Assembly: GCA_030669135.1 (NCBI GenBank)
Contig: DAOVEE010000001.1
Coordinates: 1 to 29,338, forward strand
Direction of reading: 5' to 3'
Source of the DNA: Candidatus Bathyarchaeota archaeon
GTDB taxonomy: Archaea > Thermoproteota > Bathyarchaeia > TCS64
DNA length: 29,338 nt
The translations under genes and the position numbers were made by a program. Position 1 is the first letter of the stretch, and every line of letters begins with the position of its first letter. Below are positions 1 to 7,469 of this stretch, piece by piece. The notes under the pieces were generated by a model. That model saw only the letters and a program-made list of their open reading frames with translations. It did no database searches and was not told where the DNA came from.

Positions 1-1
1 A

Positions 2-100
2 GTCGAGTCCATAGACATCATGACGGAGCAGCTCGACTCCCATGACGGAGACACGAGGAACGTGAGCGCCATTACGATTCTGCTGAAAAATGAAGGATAA
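2..100 (+). CDS. albA: Alba DNA/RNA-binding protein, 3' end only (5' partial at window edge)
   Basis: Frame 2 reads VESIDIMTEQLDSHDGDTRNVSAITILLKNEG* (TAA 98-100). This matches the Alba C-terminal pattern I.IgTe.l...dG..rnVS.IeI.L. Not in the ORF track. Confidence 0.75.
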   Translation, partial: VESIDIMTEQLDSHDGDTRNVSAITILLKNEG

Positions 101-103
101 GAT

Positions 104-111
104 GGAGGTGA
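104..111 (+). promoter_or_regulatory. Shine-Dalgarno GGAGGTGA for the cold-shock gene
   Basis: GGAGGTGA ends 3 nt before ATG 115; canonical complement of the archaeal 16S 3' end. Confidence 0.7.
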
Positions 112-114
112 GAC

Positions 115-306
115 ATGTTGGAAGGTACAGTGAAGAGATGGATGAACGGATATGGGTTCATAGGGGTTGACGGAGAAGATGACATCTTCGTCCATAATAC
201 GGATTTAGATGGAACCTACGTGCTGATGCGGAATCAGAAAGTCGAGTTCGATGTCGAGACGACGCCGAAGGGACCTAGAGCGAGAAACGTGAAGGTTATC
301 GATTAA
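115..306 (+). CDS. csp: Cold-shock domain protein (CspA family)
   Basis: 63 aa: GTVKRW, RNP1 GYGFI, RNP2 DIFVH, C-terminal V.F.VE.TPKGPRA.NV. Confidence 0.95.
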   Translation: MLEGTVKRWMNGYGFIGVDGEDDIFVHNTDLDGTYVLMRNQKVEFDVETTPKGPRARNVKVID

Positions 307-344
307 AAACATTATGTCTACCCCATGGGTTGACGGACTCACCT

Positions 345-399
345 TCATCTTTTTTAAATAAATTGATGAAATTTCATGTAATTGAATATGTTTTTTTTT
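345..399 (+). terminator. Oligo(T) terminator candidates downstream of csp
   Basis: T-runs at 350-355 and 391-399 after the csp stop; archaeal terminators are typically U-rich. Confidence 0.4.
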
Positions 400-559
400 C
401 GAGTTTAGTTCAATCAATTATGGTTAAATATTTAGAAAACACCTATTTTCTTAAAACTCAAAATGTTTAAATGAGATACTCCATATAAATTGGTAATTAA
501 ACGAGTTCATCGGCAATATTTGCAATAATTTGAGGGAAAACCCCTCTGAGACGAATTTA

Positions 560-945
560 ATGAAGCCAAGTAACTATCGAGAAAAGAACGCCATGACCTA
601 TACTAGGAAAGAGTGCATAGGCGGAATCCCTGGCTCCAAGATCGTGAAGTTCACTATGGGAAACATATCCCGTGACTTCACCCACAAGGTCAATATCATA
701 GCCACTAAGGCCGGCCAGATCAGGCACAACGCGCTGGAGGCAGCGAAGGTCGCCGCCCTGAGGCATCTTGAAGATAGGCTTGAGCGCAGGGACTTCCTCC
801 TGAAGATTGTGCCCTATCCCACCAAGTGCTAAGAGAACATAAACGGGTCAACGTCGCGCAGGCGGACCGGTTCCAGGAGGGAATGAAGAAGGCGTATGGG
901 AAGCCCGTGGCTTATAGTGCCTGCACCTCTCATCGTGAAGCTTAG
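560..945 (+). pseudogene. rpl10e: Ribosomal protein L10e (uL16), frameshifted and 3'-truncated
   Basis: ATG 560: MKPSNYRE...YTRKECIGGIPGSKIVKFTMGN...QIRHNALEAAKVAA...IVPYP. The -1 frame from about 820 continues HQVLREHKRVNVAQADRFQEGMKKAYGKPV (the conserved YPH.vLRE.K...aDR.q.GM..a.GKp block), then AYSACTSHREA* (TAG 943-945). The expected ARV...KLP C-terminal region is missing from this frame. Confidence 0.8.
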
Positions 946-993
946 AGATGTTGGTGGGGAAGTCGACGATAAGCCAGTACATGTATGGAGGTC

Positions 994-1563
994 CTACTGG
1001 TTTGCTTTTTCGACCTTGACCAGGTTCTCGAAGTCGATCCTCAGCTGTCTGACCCAGCCCCTCTCGGCGTGGAAGTCCGCGTTGTCGCATATACACCTGA
1101 CGGGGCACACGAGCTTACCTTTCTTGTATCCTTCACAGTCGTCCTCGGTCTCCGGGACCTTCCCGCATCGCCGTATACAGAGCTTCTTGGTCAGGCTCTG
1201 GATGACGGAAAGCAGCTCCGGGACACCCAGGTTCATCTTCGTCTTTGGCGTCACCATGGTAAAACTATCTTGCCCATTCACGTAGTCGACCGCGCTGGGT
1301 GTATACTTCTCCGCCATGATGATTATCTCTCCATAATCTGTGTCATCATACTTCGAGACTATCTGTTTCACCGATTCGAGGTCCGCCTTCCCGACCTGCC
1401 CATCCTTGTCGACGAACACCTTAACGATAGTGTCCTCTCCTTCTTTGGACTTATAGTCAGCTGTACAGTTCTCGTCGTCGTACCCAGAGAACCTTACTCC
1501 GTGAAGCGTCTTTACCAGCTCCACCTCTGTATCAAGCCAATCCGAATTTACCTTTAAAGCCAT
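994..1563 (-). CDS. Hypothetical protein; possible restriction-endonuclease (Mrr)-like N-domain plus Cys/His-rich C-domain
   Basis: Open 189-aa ORF with globular composition and an AT-rich promoter region upstream. The C-terminus carries CIRRC-x9-C-x9-CPVRCIC-DNADFH. The fold call is by eye. Confidence 0.65.
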   Translation of the reverse strand: MALKVNSDWLDTEVELVKTLHGVRFSGYDDENCTADYKSKEGEDTIVKVFVDKDGQVGKADLESVKQIVSKYDDTDYGEIIIMAEKYTPSAVDYVNGQDSFTMVTPKTKMNLGVPELLSVIQSLTKKLCIRRCGKVPETEDDCEGYKKGKLVCPVRCICDNADFHAERGWVRQLRIDFENLVKVEKANQ

Positions 1564-2020
1564 TTTCCTAAAAAATCCTCAACTATTTCTATGTAATATT
1601 ATACGTGATACCGATATATAATCGATATGTAAGAAAATGTAAATAAAGAAAACAATTTTTTATATAAATCAACGTTTAATCATGTGTTTTAAAATTCGAT
1701 GATTTCGAGATTTTGTAATAAAGTGACAATTATTGAAACTGTGTGAAACATTAGAGACCGGGGGTTCTTGTTGCATCAACATAATGTATTCAATGCTTAG
1801 ATCTAGATTTCATCGGGGGCCAAGCTTTCGTAACCCCAACGCATCTCGTCCCTTAACGCCGTATCCACTTATATGTTGTACCAGCTGGTAATTACGAAGT
1901 TTGCAAATGAAATATTCGATTACTTTATATTTCATGCCTTTTTGTGTTCCTTCAAAGGGTAAAGAGATATCGTAAGGTAAACTAAGCCGCGGAGACTCTT
2001 ACCATTAACGTGTGATATAA

Positions 2021-2269
2021 ATGTCGTATGAGATTGAGCAGAGTTTCAGAAACATCGTAAGATTCTACGCCTACGAACTATACATGATTGATAAAGGGAA
2101 CAAAGCAACCTCGTTCTTCAATGAGAGACAACGCAGGAGCCTCACCAAGAACGGCGTCTTCGAGAAGATCTATGTGCACAGAGGCTGCAGGCTGAAGATC
2201 TCTGAAAAAGCTAAAGCGATCCTGAGTTCAATCGACCTATCATCCATTGCTTTAACCGATCTTTTATAA
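2021..2269 (+). CDS. Small hypothetical protein (82 aa), possibly winged-helix-like
   Basis: ATG follows an AT-rich region. R.L.KnGV.EK.Y..rG..L.IseKAKAIL resembles a wHTH recognition helix plus wing. Confidence 0.55.
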   Translation: MSYEIEQSFRNIVRFYAYELYMIDKGNKATSFFNERQRRSLTKNGVFEKIYVHRGCRLKISEKAKAILSSIDLSSIALTDLL

Positions 2270-2344
2270 TTTAAACGAGAGGCAACCAACTCTTCTACTC
2301 ATTACTTTTGGACGCAAGTTTAGAGTTTTGTCTCAACCCCTACG

Positions 2345-2352
2345 TTTTTATA
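2345..2352 (+). promoter_or_regulatory. TATA box candidate for the rps8e-srp19-gar1 cluster
   Basis: TTTTTATA about 40 nt upstream of the TTG start at 2394. Confidence 0.4.
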
Positions 2353-2393
2353 CCCCCTCCCGGTCATAGTGCTAGAACGAGAGGAAAAACACG

Positions 2394-2777
2394 TTGGCTT
2401 GGCACGACAACCTCACCAAACGCAAGAAGACAGGCGGCAAGAAACGCGCGTACCGGACGAAGCGCGTACACGAGCAGGGCAGACACCCCGTCGAGACCGC
2501 CCTCGGCGAGACCAAACGCAAGAAAGTCGAAGGCAGAGCCAGGATTGAGAAGGTCAAGCTAGTAAAAGCCGAGATGGTCAACGTCAGCGACCCTGCCACG
2601 GGCAGGACGGAGCGCCTCAAGATCCTCGACGTCGTCAGAAACCCCGCCAAGGCAGAGTACAACAGGAGAGGCGTCATCACCAAAGGCACAATTATACGCA
2701 CCGAGAAAGGCCTCGCCAAGATCATCTCCAGACCCGGCCAGGACGGCGCCCTCAACGCGGTCGTCGAGGAAGAGTAA
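2394..2777 (+). CDS. rps8e: 30S ribosomal protein S8e
   Basis: KRKKTGGK...KR..E.GR.P.ET.LG, NPA..EYNRRGVITKGTII.T..G.A.I.SRPGQDG.LNAV. TTG start. Confidence 0.97.
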   Translation: MAWHDNLTKRKKTGGKKRAYRTKRVHEQGRHPVETALGETKRKKVEGRARIEKVKLVKAEMVNVSDPATGRTERLKILDVVRNPAKAEYNRRGVITKGTIIRTEKGLAKIISRPGQDGALNAVVEEE

Positions 2778-2817
2778 CCTTCTTAGCCGGAGACCCGGCA
2801 AACCTATGTGAACAGCC

Positions 2818-3096
2818 TTGAGGGGAAAGGGTAAACTCCGCGTTTGGCCAGTATACTTCGACGCCAGTTATAGCAGAGGAGAGGGAAGGAGAGTCCCCCG
2901 ATCCAAGGCTGTCAGGAGCCCCAAGGCAGAGGACATCGAGAAAGCAGCTAGGAGGCTCGGACTCAACCCAGTTCTGGAGCCCGCGGCCACTTACAGCAAG
3001 CACCCGTGGAGGCCTATCGGAGTAGTCCTCGTGGACAAGAAGGGCACCAAGACCCGGATCATCAAGGACATCGCCGAGGAGCTGAAGCGGCGATGA
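2818..3096 (+). CDS. srp19: Signal recognition particle 19 kDa protein
   Basis: VWPVYFD...SR.EGRRVP...AV.SP....I..AA..LG...P..W...G.V.V.K...K..II..IA. Confidence 0.95.
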   Translation: MRGKGKLRVWPVYFDASYSRGEGRRVPRSKAVRSPKAEDIEKAARRLGLNPVLEPAATYSKHPWRPIGVVLVDKKGTKTRIIKDIAEELKRR

Positions 3097-3380
3097 AGAT
3101 CAAGGCTAAGCTCGGCGACGTGCTGCACCGCTCAGGTAGCAGCGGCCACCTCATAGTCAGGCTAGAGGCCGAGACACACATCGGCGAGCCGGTTTACGAC
3201 ATGAAAGGGACCCGGGTGGGTACCGTCTTCGATATCTTCGGACCCGTGGAGGCACCATTCGCGTCTGTAAGGACCCGCGAAGACGATGAGGAGACCGAAC
3301 ACAAAGCGCTCTTCCTCGGAGAACAGAAGAGGCAGAGCAAGCCAAGAGACAGGTCTAGGCGTCGTAGAAACCGGTCTTAG
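3093..3380 (+). CDS. gar1: H/ACA RNP Gar1/Naf1 family protein
   Basis: ATG 3093 overlaps the srp19 stop (ATGA). LG.VLH......LIV...IG..VYD..G..VG.V.DIFGPV..PF.SV, followed by a basic tail. Confidence 0.9.
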   Translation: MKIKAKLGDVLHRSGSSGHLIVRLEAETHIGEPVYDMKGTRVGTVFDIFGPVEAPFASVRTREDDEETEHKALFLGEQKRQSKPRDRSRRRRNRS

Positions 3381-3781
3381 GCAGGGTTCAGGCAGTCTCT
3401 TACCCCCATGACTTCACCGCCCTTTAGGTACACCCTAGGCACTCTTCTACCCACCCCGCACGTCACCTCGTGGGCGATGGTGCCGAGCCACCCTGCTACC
3501 TCCTCCATTGTTGGAGCGCCGTCAGAGCCGTCCCCGAACAGCGTCACGGTGTCGCTAACCTCGACCTGCCCTATATCCGTCACGTCTACCATGCACTGAT
3601 CCATGCACACACTCCCGACGATTGGGGCCCGGCGTCCATCGATAGTCACCTCCCCGACGTTGCTCAGACCCCTGCTGTAGCCGTCGGCGTAGCCGACGGG
3701 AAGCGTGTCTATCCTGCTCTTCCTCTCAGTGCTGTGGGGGAGGCCGTAGCTAAGCCCCGTGCCGGGCGGATCATGTGAGTT
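3377..3781 (-). pseudogene. alr: Alanine racemase, C-terminal half only (bacterial type)
   Basis: The frame is open from 3781: ...PPGTGLSYG...TERKSRIDTLPVGYADGYSRGLSNVGEVTIDGRRAPIVGSVCMDQCMVDVT...GTIAHEVTCGVGRRVPRVY. An in-frame TGA lies at 3782-3784. The N-terminal PLP-Lys barrel is absent. Confidence 0.85.
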
Positions 3782-3864
3782 TCATGGATCATAGAGAATT
3801 GTTAAACGGCGGACACTATAAATCTTGGAGGTTTATCCTAGTAACCTCGCTCCAGTTCGGTGTT

Positions 3865-3940
3865 TGGCGCGGTCGGCAGGATTCGAACCCGCGACCCCGG
3901 GTTCCGAAGACCCGTGCTCTATCCACTGAGCTACGACCGC
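3865..3940 (-). tRNA. tRNA-Arg (anticodon UCG), 76 nt, intronless, CCA encoded
   Basis: GCGGTCG/CGACCGC acceptor stem, D arm GCTC-AGTGGATA-GAGC with the Arg determinant A20, anticodon stem CGGGT/ACCCG with loop CT-TCG-GA, T loop TTCGAAT, discriminator G followed by CCA. Confidence 0.97.
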
Positions 3941-4023
3941 CCATGGTTCAGAGATTCGCACACTAGAAAAGGGTTACCCCTCCACGGGTTGAACCTAAAT
4001 ACCTGTAGCTCGACACGATACAC

Positions 4024-4203
4024 GTGAACACCGAGGTCAACCTGCCATACGGAGAGACGAGTTTAAGACAGAGCATTCCCGACAGATTCGGATGCACCTT
4101 GCTGGAGCCGAGGGACGTGAAGAAGGCTCTCGACGCCGTTGACCAGGATCCTAAGATAAGCATAATACCCGGGGGTCCGTCTACGATTTCACTGTTGGAG
4201 TGA
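4024..4203 (+). pseudogene. Internally deleted LarA-family remnant (59 aa: N-terminus fused to C-terminus)
   Basis: GTG 4024: VNTEVNLPYGETSLRQSIPDRFGCTLLEPRDV|KKALDAVDQDPKISIIPGGPSTISLLE*. The first half matches the LarA N-terminal LPY motif (shared LPYGET with the 20582-21817 gene). The second half matches the LarA C-terminal ekA.....q.akv.vIP.G motif. Below the 60-aa track cut-off. Confidence 0.6.
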
Positions 4204-4670
4204 TGGTTATGCGGCCTGAGAGGGTGGTTCAGAGCGTCGAGGTTACCGCGCTGGTCCACGCGACGGAGGACGAGTCCAAGGTAAGGAAAGCCGTCCTGAA
4301 CCTTTTGCCACCGGGCATCGATCCTCCGGCCCTCAAGGCCGTCAAGCTGCAGGGCTACTATGGGGACCCCTTAACCGCCCTCAAGCTCAACGTGAAGCAC
4401 AGGAAGCCCGCCACGGATCTGCTTGAGCACGTCGTCAGACGGCTCTCGTCTCTGGATCTCCAGGCCTTCCTAGATGAGCTGCCCCAGCGCATCGACGAAT
4501 CGAAGAACCTTTACATCAGGCTCGACAAGCAGAAGGCGTACACCGGGAAGGCGGTGTTGGAGAGGCATGACTCCATCAGGGTCAAGGCGAAGCTCCGGCT
4601 CCCCCACAAGGCGGACCCCGTAGAGTCCATACGGATGTACATAGAATCCTTGGAGACGTATCCGACATGA
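4200..4670 (+). CDS. Predicted RNA-binding protein (COG1325/PF01877 type, exosome-superoperon associated)
   Basis: VHATEDE.KV..AV.NLL, G.YG.P, .LY IRLDKQ.AY.G; lies immediately upstream of rnp3 as in other archaea. Confidence 0.85.
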   Translation: MMVMRPERVVQSVEVTALVHATEDESKVRKAVLNLLPPGIDPPALKAVKLQGYYGDPLTALKLNVKHRKPATDLLEHVVRRLSSLDLQAFLDELPQRIDESKNLYIRLDKQKAYTGKAVLERHDSIRVKAKLRLPHKADPVESIRMYIESLETYPT

Positions 4671-5341
4671 GGCGCTTCATAGACCTCCAAATACTCCCCG
4701 GGCCAGGGAAGACGGCTGAGATGCTGAGCCACGCCAACCACTTGGGATACTCTGCGGTCGGCTGCGGGGGGGACCCCCCGTCTGACGCTTCCATCGACGT
4801 AATATCCCGGCTTGACGTCGCGCCTAGGAGCCAGCAGGACCTACAGCGCATGCTCAAAGGGAACAGACGGAAGCATGAGGTGATATCGGTTCTGTGTCTA
4901 TCTAAGGGCGTGGCCCGCCGGGCGGCCAAGAACCCCAGGGTAGATCTTCTGAGGTTCCCGAGGTGCCCTTCGAGGAGGACAGTCTGGCTTGACAGACAGC
5001 AGGCGGCGTTGGCGGGTGAAGGGGGCTGCCAATTCGAGGTGGTGGCTAGTGACTTACTTACCCAGGACCCTGAGAAGCTGGGCTACGTCATCAAGCAACT
5101 GGAAAAGGAGGTCTTGAACGCCCGAAGATACGACGTGCCCGTGGTGCTCTCCAGTGGAGCCGACTCTGTTAACGGTATGAGGGCCCCGAGGTCGTTAGCC
5201 GCGTTGATGAGCCTCATCGGGTTGGGCGAGGAGGAGTCGCTGGACCTGGTCTCCGTGAACCCATGGGCCCTGGTCGAAAGAAACCGTGATAAGCTCTCCG
5301 CGTCATATGTTTCACCCGGAGTCCGGGTGATGGATTCTTGA
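4667..5341 (+). CDS. rnp3: Ribonuclease P protein component 3 (Rpp30)
   Basis: PHP/TIM-like: MRRFIDL, R.A.KNPRVDLL, P.VLSSGA.S...MRAPR.LAAL..LIG; ATGA overlap with the upstream gene. Confidence 0.9.
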   Translation: MRRFIDLQILPGPGKTAEMLSHANHLGYSAVGCGGDPPSDASIDVISRLDVAPRSQQDLQRMLKGNRRKHEVISVLCLSKGVARRAAKNPRVDLLRFPRCPSRRTVWLDRQQAALAGEGGCQFEVVASDLLTQDPEKLGYVIKQLEKEVLNARRYDVPVVLSSGADSVNGMRAPRSLAALMSLIGLGEEESLDLVSVNPWALVERNRDKLSASYVSPGVRVMDS

Positions 5342-6075
5342 CCGAGAAGGCGAAGATAGACATACTGGTTCACTGCTTCTACCACAGGGTGGGTCTTCAC
5401 AGGGGGCACCCCGTGCTGAGCGTCAGATGGCCCCTCACGCCGATGCCTCAGGAGACGGTGAACGAGGTTTATGGAGGCAAGGTCTTCAGCCTAGGGAGCA
5501 CAAACACTGTGCTCATAAGGGACGGAGACCTGAACATGGTCCACGACCCAGGTATACTGCAGCTGGGCAGGTACGGCACCCTAAAGATGAGACTGGAGGA
5601 GTTCGGGCTGAAGCCGAACGACATAGACGTCGTGATCAACAGCCACTGCCACTACGACCACATAGAGGCTAACTACATGTTCAAGGGCAAGCCGCTCTAC
5701 GTCCACGAGGAGGAGGTAAAGTTCTGCGACAGGCTGTACTGGCCCGAGTTCACCGAGGCCTTCATGGGCATCATGGACGTGAAGAGCTTCAACGGCGACG
5801 CACGGGTCTCCGACAACGTGAAGATCATCGAGACGGTGGGCCATACCCCGGGGAGCGTAACGACCCTCGTGGACACGGAGGACGGCCTCGTCGCTCTGGT
5901 GGGGGACGCCGCCATAGTTAAGGAGGACCTGCTGGAGCTGAGACCGCCGAGCGTGGTCACGAAGAACCTTGAGGCCGACGTCGCCGTGGCCAGTCTGCGG
6001 AAGATCAGGGACCTAAACCCCGTCTTGGTGGTGCCCGGCCACGACGCGCCCTTCTCTCCACAAGGTTTAAAATAA
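5338..6075 (+). CDS. Metallo-beta-lactamase fold hydrolase (AHL-lactonase/glyoxalase II-like)
   Basis: HCHYDH (HxHxDH), GHTPGS, LVGDA, PGHD; the TTG start overlaps the rnp3 stop. Confidence 0.88.
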   Translation: MTEKAKIDILVHCFYHRVGLHRGHPVLSVRWPLTPMPQETVNEVYGGKVFSLGSTNTVLIRDGDLNMVHDPGILQLGRYGTLKMRLEEFGLKPNDIDVVINSHCHYDHIEANYMFKGKPLYVHEEEVKFCDRLYWPEFTEAFMGIMDVKSFNGDARVSDNVKIIETVGHTPGSVTTLVDTEDGLVALVGDAAIVKEDLLELRPPSVVTKNLEADVAVASLRKIRDLNPVLVVPGHDAPFSPQGLK

Positions 6076-6254
6076 TCTGCCCTGTAAGGCTTGGCAGTGA
6101 ATAGATTTGCCGACGCACGGGTCTCTTACTAAAGCAGGAAAGGTAAGAGCTCAGACCCCTAAGATCGATGGCATTGATAGGAAGAGCCCCTCCCCAAAGA
6201 GAAGGAACAAATCTAACTATAAGAAGCGGATTCTCTACGTCAGGGAAGACCGCT

Positions 6255-6599
6255 TTAGAAGAAGACGTTAGAGATATTTTTGAACGATTTCACGAATGTG
6301 CTGAACCAGGGTAGGGTCATCAGGTACCTGAATAATAGTAGACCGATTGATGCAACTAGACCTAGGTAGCCTAGTCCTTTTATCCAGTCGAAGGGGCTTC
6401 CGGTGGGTCCTGTGGATGTATCCGGAGGCTCTTTGAGGTACTCGCTGGGCTGGTAGGAGGCGTTGGTCACTTGGGCGCTGTACGTGTAGATCGTGAGGAT
6501 GAGGGCTAACGACGTGACTAAGCCGAGGGATAGCCTCCAGTTCGCGTTAGAAGACGCCTTGATGAGACGCATGTATCTCTGTATGCCCATTACTTTCAT
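6255..6599 (-). CDS. Hypothetical membrane protein, two TM segments
   Basis: 114 aa with hydrophobic LSLGLVTSLALILTIYTY and GLGYLGLVASIGLLLFRYL separated by a polar Pro/Thr loop. Confidence 0.55.
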   Translation of the reverse strand: MKVMGIQRYMRLIKASSNANWRLSLGLVTSLALILTIYTYSAQVTNASYQPSEYLKEPPDTSTGPTGSPFDWIKGLGYLGLVASIGLLLFRYLMTLPWFSTFVKSFKNISNVFF

Positions 6600-6713
6600 T
6601 TAGGCTTCAAGAAATGAGGTTAAAAACATGATGTACCTCTCTGGCGGTTACATCGTGCATAGTTTTGAAGGAGTCTTCTCGATGTCGCCCCGATCTTGAC
6701 GTCGGTTTAAAAA

Positions 6714-7469
6714 CTATAGGTGAGAGGAGACCCAGTCGATGACCGCTTTCTGTAGCGGGATCCTGTGTTCGCTGAACCCGTGGTCGGCGCCTTCGATCTC
6801 CACCAGCTTCTTGGGCTCGTTGGCCGCCTCGTAGAGCCTCCTGATGTCTGTCGGCAGGGTCAAGTTGTCGTTGGTGCCAAGGACCACTATCAAGGGTGAA
6901 TGTACCCTCCTCACGGTCTCAATTGGGTTCAGCTTGGAGGCGGCGACCTTGATATCCTCTCGCAGCTTCTCCTCCGTCCACCCAGCCAGTTTTCCTTCCG
7001 CCATCTTGAGGAAAACGGGTACGATGTTCTCGAGGTATGGGTCCTCGGACCAGGACTTAATGTCTGAGGCGGGCGCCATGAGAATCCCCGTCTTCAGCGA
7101 CGGATCCATGCTCATGCACTTAGTCAGGGGCACCGCCCCCATGCTATGGGAGACCAGCCCAACCCTGTTGGGGTCGACGCAGTTTAGGCCTCGTAGGTAC
7201 TTGACCGCTGCCTCGGTGCTGGGCACCAGGTTTGTCAGTCTGTACTCTCCTTCGCTTCCCCACGCCCCCATGTAATAGAAGATGAGGACCACCACGCCGT
7301 TGAGAGCGAGCTCCTCCGCAAGATCCATGTTCTTGGTGTCGCCGGGGTATCCGTGGCAGACGGCGACGGCGGGGTACAAGGCTTCCTCCCTGGGCCTGTA
7401 CAGGCGTCCGAGGAGTCTAATGCTGTCACAGGGGATGATCGTGTCTTCGACGACTATGGTTTCACCCAT
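6714..7469 (-). CDS. Alpha/beta-fold hydrolase
   Basis: HGYPG oxyanion motif, nucleophile SHSMG, acid GTNDNL, His GADHGF. ATG 7469 preferred (track starts at GTG 7475). Confidence 0.9.
   Translation of the reverse strand: MGETIVVEDTIIPCDSIRLLGRLYRPREEALYPAVAVCHGYPGDTKNMDLAEELALNGVVVLIFYYMGAWGSEGEYRLTNLVPSTEAAVKYLRGLNCVDPNRVGLVSHSMGAVPLTKCMSMDPSLKTGILMAPASDIKSWSEDPYLENIVPVFLKMAEGKLAGWTEEKLREDIKVAASKLNPIETVRRVHSPLIVVLGTNDNLTLPTDIRRLYEAANEPKKLVEIEGADHGFSEHRIPLQKAVIDWVSSHL

Follow-up and report, generated by a model that had tools for sequence, protein, structure and literature searches.

Positions 560–910 on the plus strand of the DNA analysed here are very probably a non-functional relic of uL16B, a second (type B) gene for ribosomal protein uL16/L10e that has been disabled by a deletion of about 3.4 kb and a 1-nt deletion, the cell relying on the type A copy, uL16A. 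The whole stretch of 29,338 nucleotides, called the window, is contig C119 of the Bathyarchaeia MAG G000, which has 298 contigs and is 94.8% complete with 4.1% contamination. JGI metagenome contigs were also scanned by sequence pattern, and two of them, L100 (Ga0265594_1001556) and L102 (Ga0114918_10003757), recur below. The features of the window that bear on the relic are the following.

2–100, plus strand: 3' end of an Alba gene whose 5' part is on contig C276 (tblastn, 94% to the Alba of G004)
115–306, plus strand: CSD (cold-shock-domain) gene, from the ORF listing, 75% identical to the CSD of G004
462–473, plus strand: AATGTTTAAATG, a BRE/TATA-like box and putative promoter, conserved with intact uL16B loci in the upstream alignment
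511–546, plus strand: conserved 5' leader with two putative hairpins (GCAA-TAT-TTGC and GAGGG-loop-CCCTC), from the upstream alignment
560–820, plus strand: first part of the remnant, codons 1–87 in frame 1 (MKPSNYREK...KIVPYP), PF00252, type B clade
818–820, plus strand: frameshift site, CCN CAY minus one base giving CCC ACC, from the alignment and also in L100 and L102
820–910, plus strand: second part of the remnant, codons 88–117 in a second frame (HQVLREHKRVNVAQADRFQEGMKKAYGKPV), by homology to intact copies
830–832, plus strand: premature TAA stop of frame 1, from ORF reading
899–910, no strand: deletion junction GGAAGCCCGTGG, which resembles the uL16B site GGAAGCCTGTGG and the antisense p76 site GGAAGCCTTCGG
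911–982, minus strand: remnant of the convergent gene p76 (small, zinc-finger-like), first 24 codons with the ATG at 982–980, by alignment with p76 of G045, G003, G004 and G044
994–1563, minus strand: p189, intact, 189 aa, upstream operon partner of p76 and a paralogue of p195, from the ORF listing
3868–3940, minus strand: tRNA gene (Rfam RF00005, 69.4 bits)

Codons 1–117 of a uL16/L10e gene occupy window 560–910. The frame 560–832 opens from the ATG at 560 with MKPSNYREKNAMTYTRKECIGGIPGSKIVKFTMGN and, after the CCC at 818–820, reads ACC AAG TGC TAA, and the uL16 sequence resumes in frame from 820 as HQVLREHKRVNVAQADRFQEGMKKAYGKPV. All 13 intact copies examined (11 of type B and two of type A) have CCN CAY at this site, where the window has CC-CAC, one base short, in agreement with the sequence-only reading, which had placed a lost base at 818–820. 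The Pfam profile Ribosomal_L16 (PF00252) matches window 593–829 with 36.9 bits, above the cut-off of 27.9, and by BLASTP against the intact uL16 of its own genome the remnant reaches an identity of 57% in frame 1 (87 aa) and 77% in frame 2 (39 aa), both results agreeing with the earlier identification of a broken uL16 gene. The identity to the intact uL16B of G004 is 86% at the amino acid level. No single frame carries the full-length domain, since the match covers profile positions 4–72 of 132 only; the intact uL16 copies cover positions 2–132. The N-terminal two thirds of the remnant align with archaeal uL16 (L10e; PF00252), with GGIPGSKIV, HNALEAA, YPHQVLRE and ADRFQEGM..GKP kept, but its frame is broken at codon 87, the last ~50 codons are gone, and it belongs to a genus-specific duplicate clade and is not the copy at the ancestral locus. 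The gene is disabled both by the 1-nt deletion with its premature stop and by the loss of its 3' third.

The match to every intact copy, in DNA and in protein, stops at window 910, straight after GKPV, the point after which homology had already been reported as lost. From 911 on, the window aligns with the p76 and p189 region of relatives, and codons 1–24 of p76 (MYWLIVDFPTNISKLHDERCRHYK) are read on the minus strand from 982 to 911, with one Cys of the CxxC motif replaced (CRHY); p76 of G045 is intact with 84 aa. A decayed AYKLP.P..IV C-terminus left by an internal deletion is rejected because 911–982 is antisense p76, with 85–90% DNA identity to intact p76, and GCTTATAGTGCCTGCACCTCTCATCGTG, which had been read as that C-terminus, is the reverse complement of p76 codons (MYWLNVDFPTNISKLHKKGCRHCKPRAS) that are intact in relatives. 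Since the sequence after 910 belongs to the convergent p76, the second lesion is a 3' truncation, due to a deletion of several genes (~3.4 kb), in place of the internal deletion suggested before.

At the junction the uL16B site and the antisense p76 site agree in 10 of 12 positions, and L104, a single contig, has both sites in the same direction at a distance of 3405 bp. A single microhomology-guided deletion of ~3.4 kb would have brought codon 117 of uL16B up against codon 24 of p76, truncating two convergent genes and removing everything between them. A separate 1-nt deletion at 818–820 shifts the frame. If the ancestor was like the intact relatives, the genes lost would be the 3' end of uL16B, uS12B, eS26B, a small Zn-ribbon gene, TFB, p195, CSD2 and p76', and the absence of uS12B 3' of the remnant would be due to this deletion. 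Its size in this lineage would be ~3.4 kb on the model of the intact loci; this genome has a p195-CSD2-p76' module elsewhere, beside TBP and aIF1A on contig C52, so the ancestor need not have been like the intact relatives and L104, and fewer bases may have been lost. A junction within a short and imperfect direct repeat, a further frameshift and an intact paralogue that takes over the function are features shared with other prokaryotic pseudogenes formed by microhomology deletion; there is no essential difference, and the uL16B remnant is a textbook case.

An improbable alternative is that the remnant is still in use, either through a programmed -1 frameshift at 818–820 giving a 128-aa product or as a 90-aa fragment retained for regulation or assembly. 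Both the window and L100 have kept the promoter-like box, the leader and the ATG, and with box and start codon intact transcription and synthesis of the 90-aa fragment could still occur; the long-term dN/dS is low as well, but this stems from the long time before inactivation. Frameshifting is opposed by the sequence TAT CCC ACC AAG, which has no slippery X XXY YYZ heptamer, and by a downstream frame that ends after 41 codons with the C-terminal third missing, so that both the heptamer and the full-length downstream frame of a programmed frameshift are lacking. For the fragment, ~50 C-terminal residues of the fold are lost, and columns invariant in type B have changed, with Y20C in all three conspecific contigs, Y to H and A to V in L102, and K to E in L100. 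L102 furthermore starts with GTG, not ATG, and the gene is wholly deleted in the close relatives G045, G047 and G002. A residual 90-aa product would on these grounds be without function, in keeping with a non-functional relic.

The AATGTTTAAATG box sits ~90 nt 5' of the uL16B start. In the leader hairpin the loop differs among relatives and the stem does not, and the leader could be an autoregulatory element of uL16B. An Rfam scan of window 1–4200 left the leader unmatched and gave the tRNA as its sole match.

The intact uL16A of this genome is found on contig C95 (G000:C95:5368-5820) and encodes 169 aa. Its neighbourhood, L21e-RpoF-DUF655-uL16-Dph2, is kept across the genus and also by other families of its order, indicating that the C95 locus is the ancestral one (type A). 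With uL16A on C95 an intact copy covers the function, and the sequence-only reading was borne out in expecting both an intact paralogue elsewhere and a decaying, non-essential duplicate in the window, the tree described below placing the remnant in the duplicate clade. Both C95 and C119 rank their relatives alike, with G045 first (92–94% nucleotide identity), followed by G047 and then the rest, and no near-identical duplicates of C119 or C95 genes were found elsewhere in the bin, so the two contigs fit one genome. From this we infer that uL16A and the uL16B remnant, which are on separate contigs of the MAG, occur in one cell. A mixed-population origin of the A and B copies was considered and rejected on the same two observations. 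The cell would rely on uL16A at the ancestral locus and on uS12A beside EF-1alpha; uS12 is present in this genome as the A copy only, next to EF-1alpha on C259. A search of this MAG for eS26 of either type found none, whereas the gene is present in 30 of 31 relatives from the genus; the missing A copy is probably on an unbinned contig.

In the maximum-likelihood tree the uL16 proteins of the genus form two sister clades, A and B, joined with 100/97, and the remnant falls inside the B clade (100/99) with the B copy of G004 as its nearest neighbour. To judge from this tree, uL16B is a within-genus duplicate and not foreign DNA. Intact type B genes are present in seven of the ~30 genus genomes surveyed (G003, G004, G005, G010, G015, G022 and G024). 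The possibility that G004 has type B alone was discarded, as a partial uL16A, cut off within its first 27 codons, stands at the end of contig C122 of that genome. By sequence comparison type B is under purifying selection where intact. Between the remnant and the B copy of G004 the dN/dS is 0.085 at a dS of 0.8, indicating that the inactivation is recent relative to the split from G004. A comparison of the three conspecific contigs for relaxed selection gave 2–7 non-synonymous against 2–4 synonymous changes per pair, with ratios of 0.3–1.0; these counts are very small, and the ratios of the neighbouring p189 are similar.

That a horizontally acquired uL16 is decaying here in AT-rich alien DNA is very unlikely, and the transferred copy proposed in the sequence-only reading is contradicted by the phylogeny of both copies, in which the two types are sisters within the genus and type B is not nested in other lineages. 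The order-specific motif REHKRVNVAQADRFQEGMKKAYGKP is common to A and B. The AT-rich flanks that had been pointed out are indeed there, with 25–31% GC against 55–60% in genes, but other intergenic spacers of the window are as AT-rich, for instance the spacer at 1564–2020, so that this is the normal composition of the genome and no sign of alien DNA. Variation of the locus content among relatives would also suit a foreign element; no integrase is found in the array, and in the viral collection scanned a close relative of type B was not found, the one match being distant (31% over 76 aa).

The lesions recur in independent data. Compared with window 1–3000, L100 and L102 are 97.9% and 97.6% identical and have the gene order of the window, and both lack exactly the base that the window lacks (CCCTATCCCACCAAG) and share its junction (GGGAAGCCCGTGG, then CTTAYAGTGCC). 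An exact 24-mer across the junction matched no metagenome contig, owing to one SNP (T/C at 915), and a second search pattern, placed in p76, gave six metagenome contigs. The idea that the gene is intact in the organism and that a homopolymer error and a chimeric join explain the lesions has almost no chance of being right, for although the MAG is built from short reads with k=141 overlaps at contig ends and has a contig break 450 bases 5' of the remnant, two contigs from other metagenomes, otherwise collinear over 14–18 kb, have the same missing base and junction, and the common sequence at the junction is only 12 nt, well under any assembly k-mer, so that an assembler chimera is not credible. 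A lone homopolymer sequencing error had been thought unlikely from the start, and three independent assemblies now concur. On the sequences of three samples both lesions appear to be fixed in the species-level population, although an intact allele may persist there as a minority. The uL16B remnant is a real, recently inactivated, ordinary pseudogene.

In relatives that retain it, uL16B is the first gene of an operon uL16B-uS12B-eS26B, and the full array is found on the single contigs L101, L103 and L104 and in G004. It is given here in the orientation of the window, followed by four loci of relatives that have lost parts of it.

Full array: GNAT> p109> <p103 Alba> CSD> uL16B> uS12B> eS26B> Zn-ribbon> <TFB <p195 CSD2> p76'> <p76 <p189 ... 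S8e>
G002 locus: CSD joined straight to p189
G045 locus: p103 joined to a 3' remnant of p76'
G047 locus: p103 joined to p189
G044 locus: uL16B lacking 243 nt in frame between LEAA/LEDA-coding repeats, and the TFB-p195-CSD2 block gone

Together with the event in the window these amount to at least five independent lesions of the cluster, indicating that the accessory cluster is dispensable when A copies are present. The broken uL16B of G044 is located at L054 (G044:C63) 135–464 on the minus strand, has lost 81 codons and has an 85-aa open frame left, with an intact uS12B immediately 3' of that frame.

Pfam confirms eS26 in the array (34.7 bits versus 27), as well as TFIIB and CSD. The uS12 sequences fall into two clades (99/99), A beside EF-1alpha and B beside uL16B, and uS12A and uS12B occur together in G010, G015 and G022. 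Only B-type uS12 was detected in G004, G005 and G024, of which G005 is 96% complete; either uS12A is unassembled in these three genomes or uS12B has replaced it in some species. The eS26 of relatives comes in a full-length A form of ~75 bits and a shorter, divergent B form of 33–42 bits, and the one eS26B sequence that was read, from G004, keeps two Cys pairs.

On contig C336 of G003 an intact uL16B is followed by a p195-like gene and not by uS12B, and this genome has two B-type uS12 copies (C269 and C149), a pattern suggesting either that the module was duplicated or rearranged once more or that the bin, with 7% contamination, is mixed. A Bathyarchaeia-type uL16B-uS12B-eS26B-TFB array is also present on L066 (DATKYC010000011.1) in a soil MAG labelled 'Acidobacteriota', a placement that is probably a binning error; the eS26B of this array aligns across two frames and may contain a frameshift.

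Upstream of the remnant the synteny GNAT-p109-p103-Alba-CSD is kept in this genome, and the CSD gene is directly 5' of uL16B in all full-length relatives. Contig C276, which carries the GNAT, p109, p103 and Alba genes, overlaps the start of the window by 141 bases (k=141), and it is here, by the CSD gene, that the assembly graph breaks. Between conspecific contigs the CSD gene has 88–92% nucleotide identity with in-frame indels, compared with ~98% in the flanks, which suggests that the CSD region is a polymorphic hotspot.

On the other side of the remnant, p189 has no match in Pfam, and the match of p195 to an inactive restriction-endonuclease-like family is weak and below the threshold. An assignment of p189 as the orthologue of the G004 p195 was dropped, since the two are paralogues with 35% identity and the true p189 orthologues are found beyond p76. 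Both p189 and p195 are ~190-aa paralogues with C-terminal Cys clusters, and p76 and p76' are ~80-aa CxxC proteins. Modules of p189/p195 and p76/p76' recur with CSD paralogues at several loci, among them L057 (G000:C52) 4399–7033.

The remnant itself is ordinary, and the accessory operon that it revealed, with its repeated decay, is the more useful result. Because the operon is intact and under selection in some species and lost or broken at least five times elsewhere, it offers a natural presence/absence series in which the use of alternative ribosomal subunits by archaea could be examined. A practical consequence is that a second uL16 match can inflate the contamination estimates of MAGs of this genus. 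The sites of uL16, uS12 and eS26 in the ribosome are the large-subunit tRNA-binding region, the decoding centre and the mRNA exit region, respectively. With these sites, with extra CSD, Alba and TFB genes around it, and with purifying selection where intact but repeated loss in sister species, the operon, apparently undescribed so far, could conceivably supply alternative subunits for condition-specific (stress or cold) ribosomes, as an archaeal counterpart of the bacterial alternative operons, a proposal that is speculative and rather less likely than its opposite. We know of no metal or other regulator of uL16B-uS12B-eS26B, and our literature search found no paper on ribosomal-protein paralogues in Bathyarchaeia.

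Paralogues of archaeal ribosomal proteins are rare, with 26 described in 87 genomes, 17 of them in Halobacteria and mostly of S10p, S17e and S14 (Yutin et al. 2012, PMC3353972), and uL16 is absent from the examples in the main text of that paper. The type B genes resemble these known cases (PMC3353972) in being rare, lineage-specific ribosomal-protein duplicates, but they occur in Bathyarchaeia, concern other proteins, and have three paralogues linked in one operon. Alternative ribosomal-protein operons of bacteria, such as the Zur-regulated zinc-free L31/L33/L36/S14/S18, are discussed in the same paper (PMC3353972). As in those systems, the second set is clustered in a single operon, is patchy among close relatives and stands beside the primary copies; the accessory operon differs in consisting of uL16, uS12 and eS26, so that the bacterial operons serve as a working analogy and not as a class to which it belongs.
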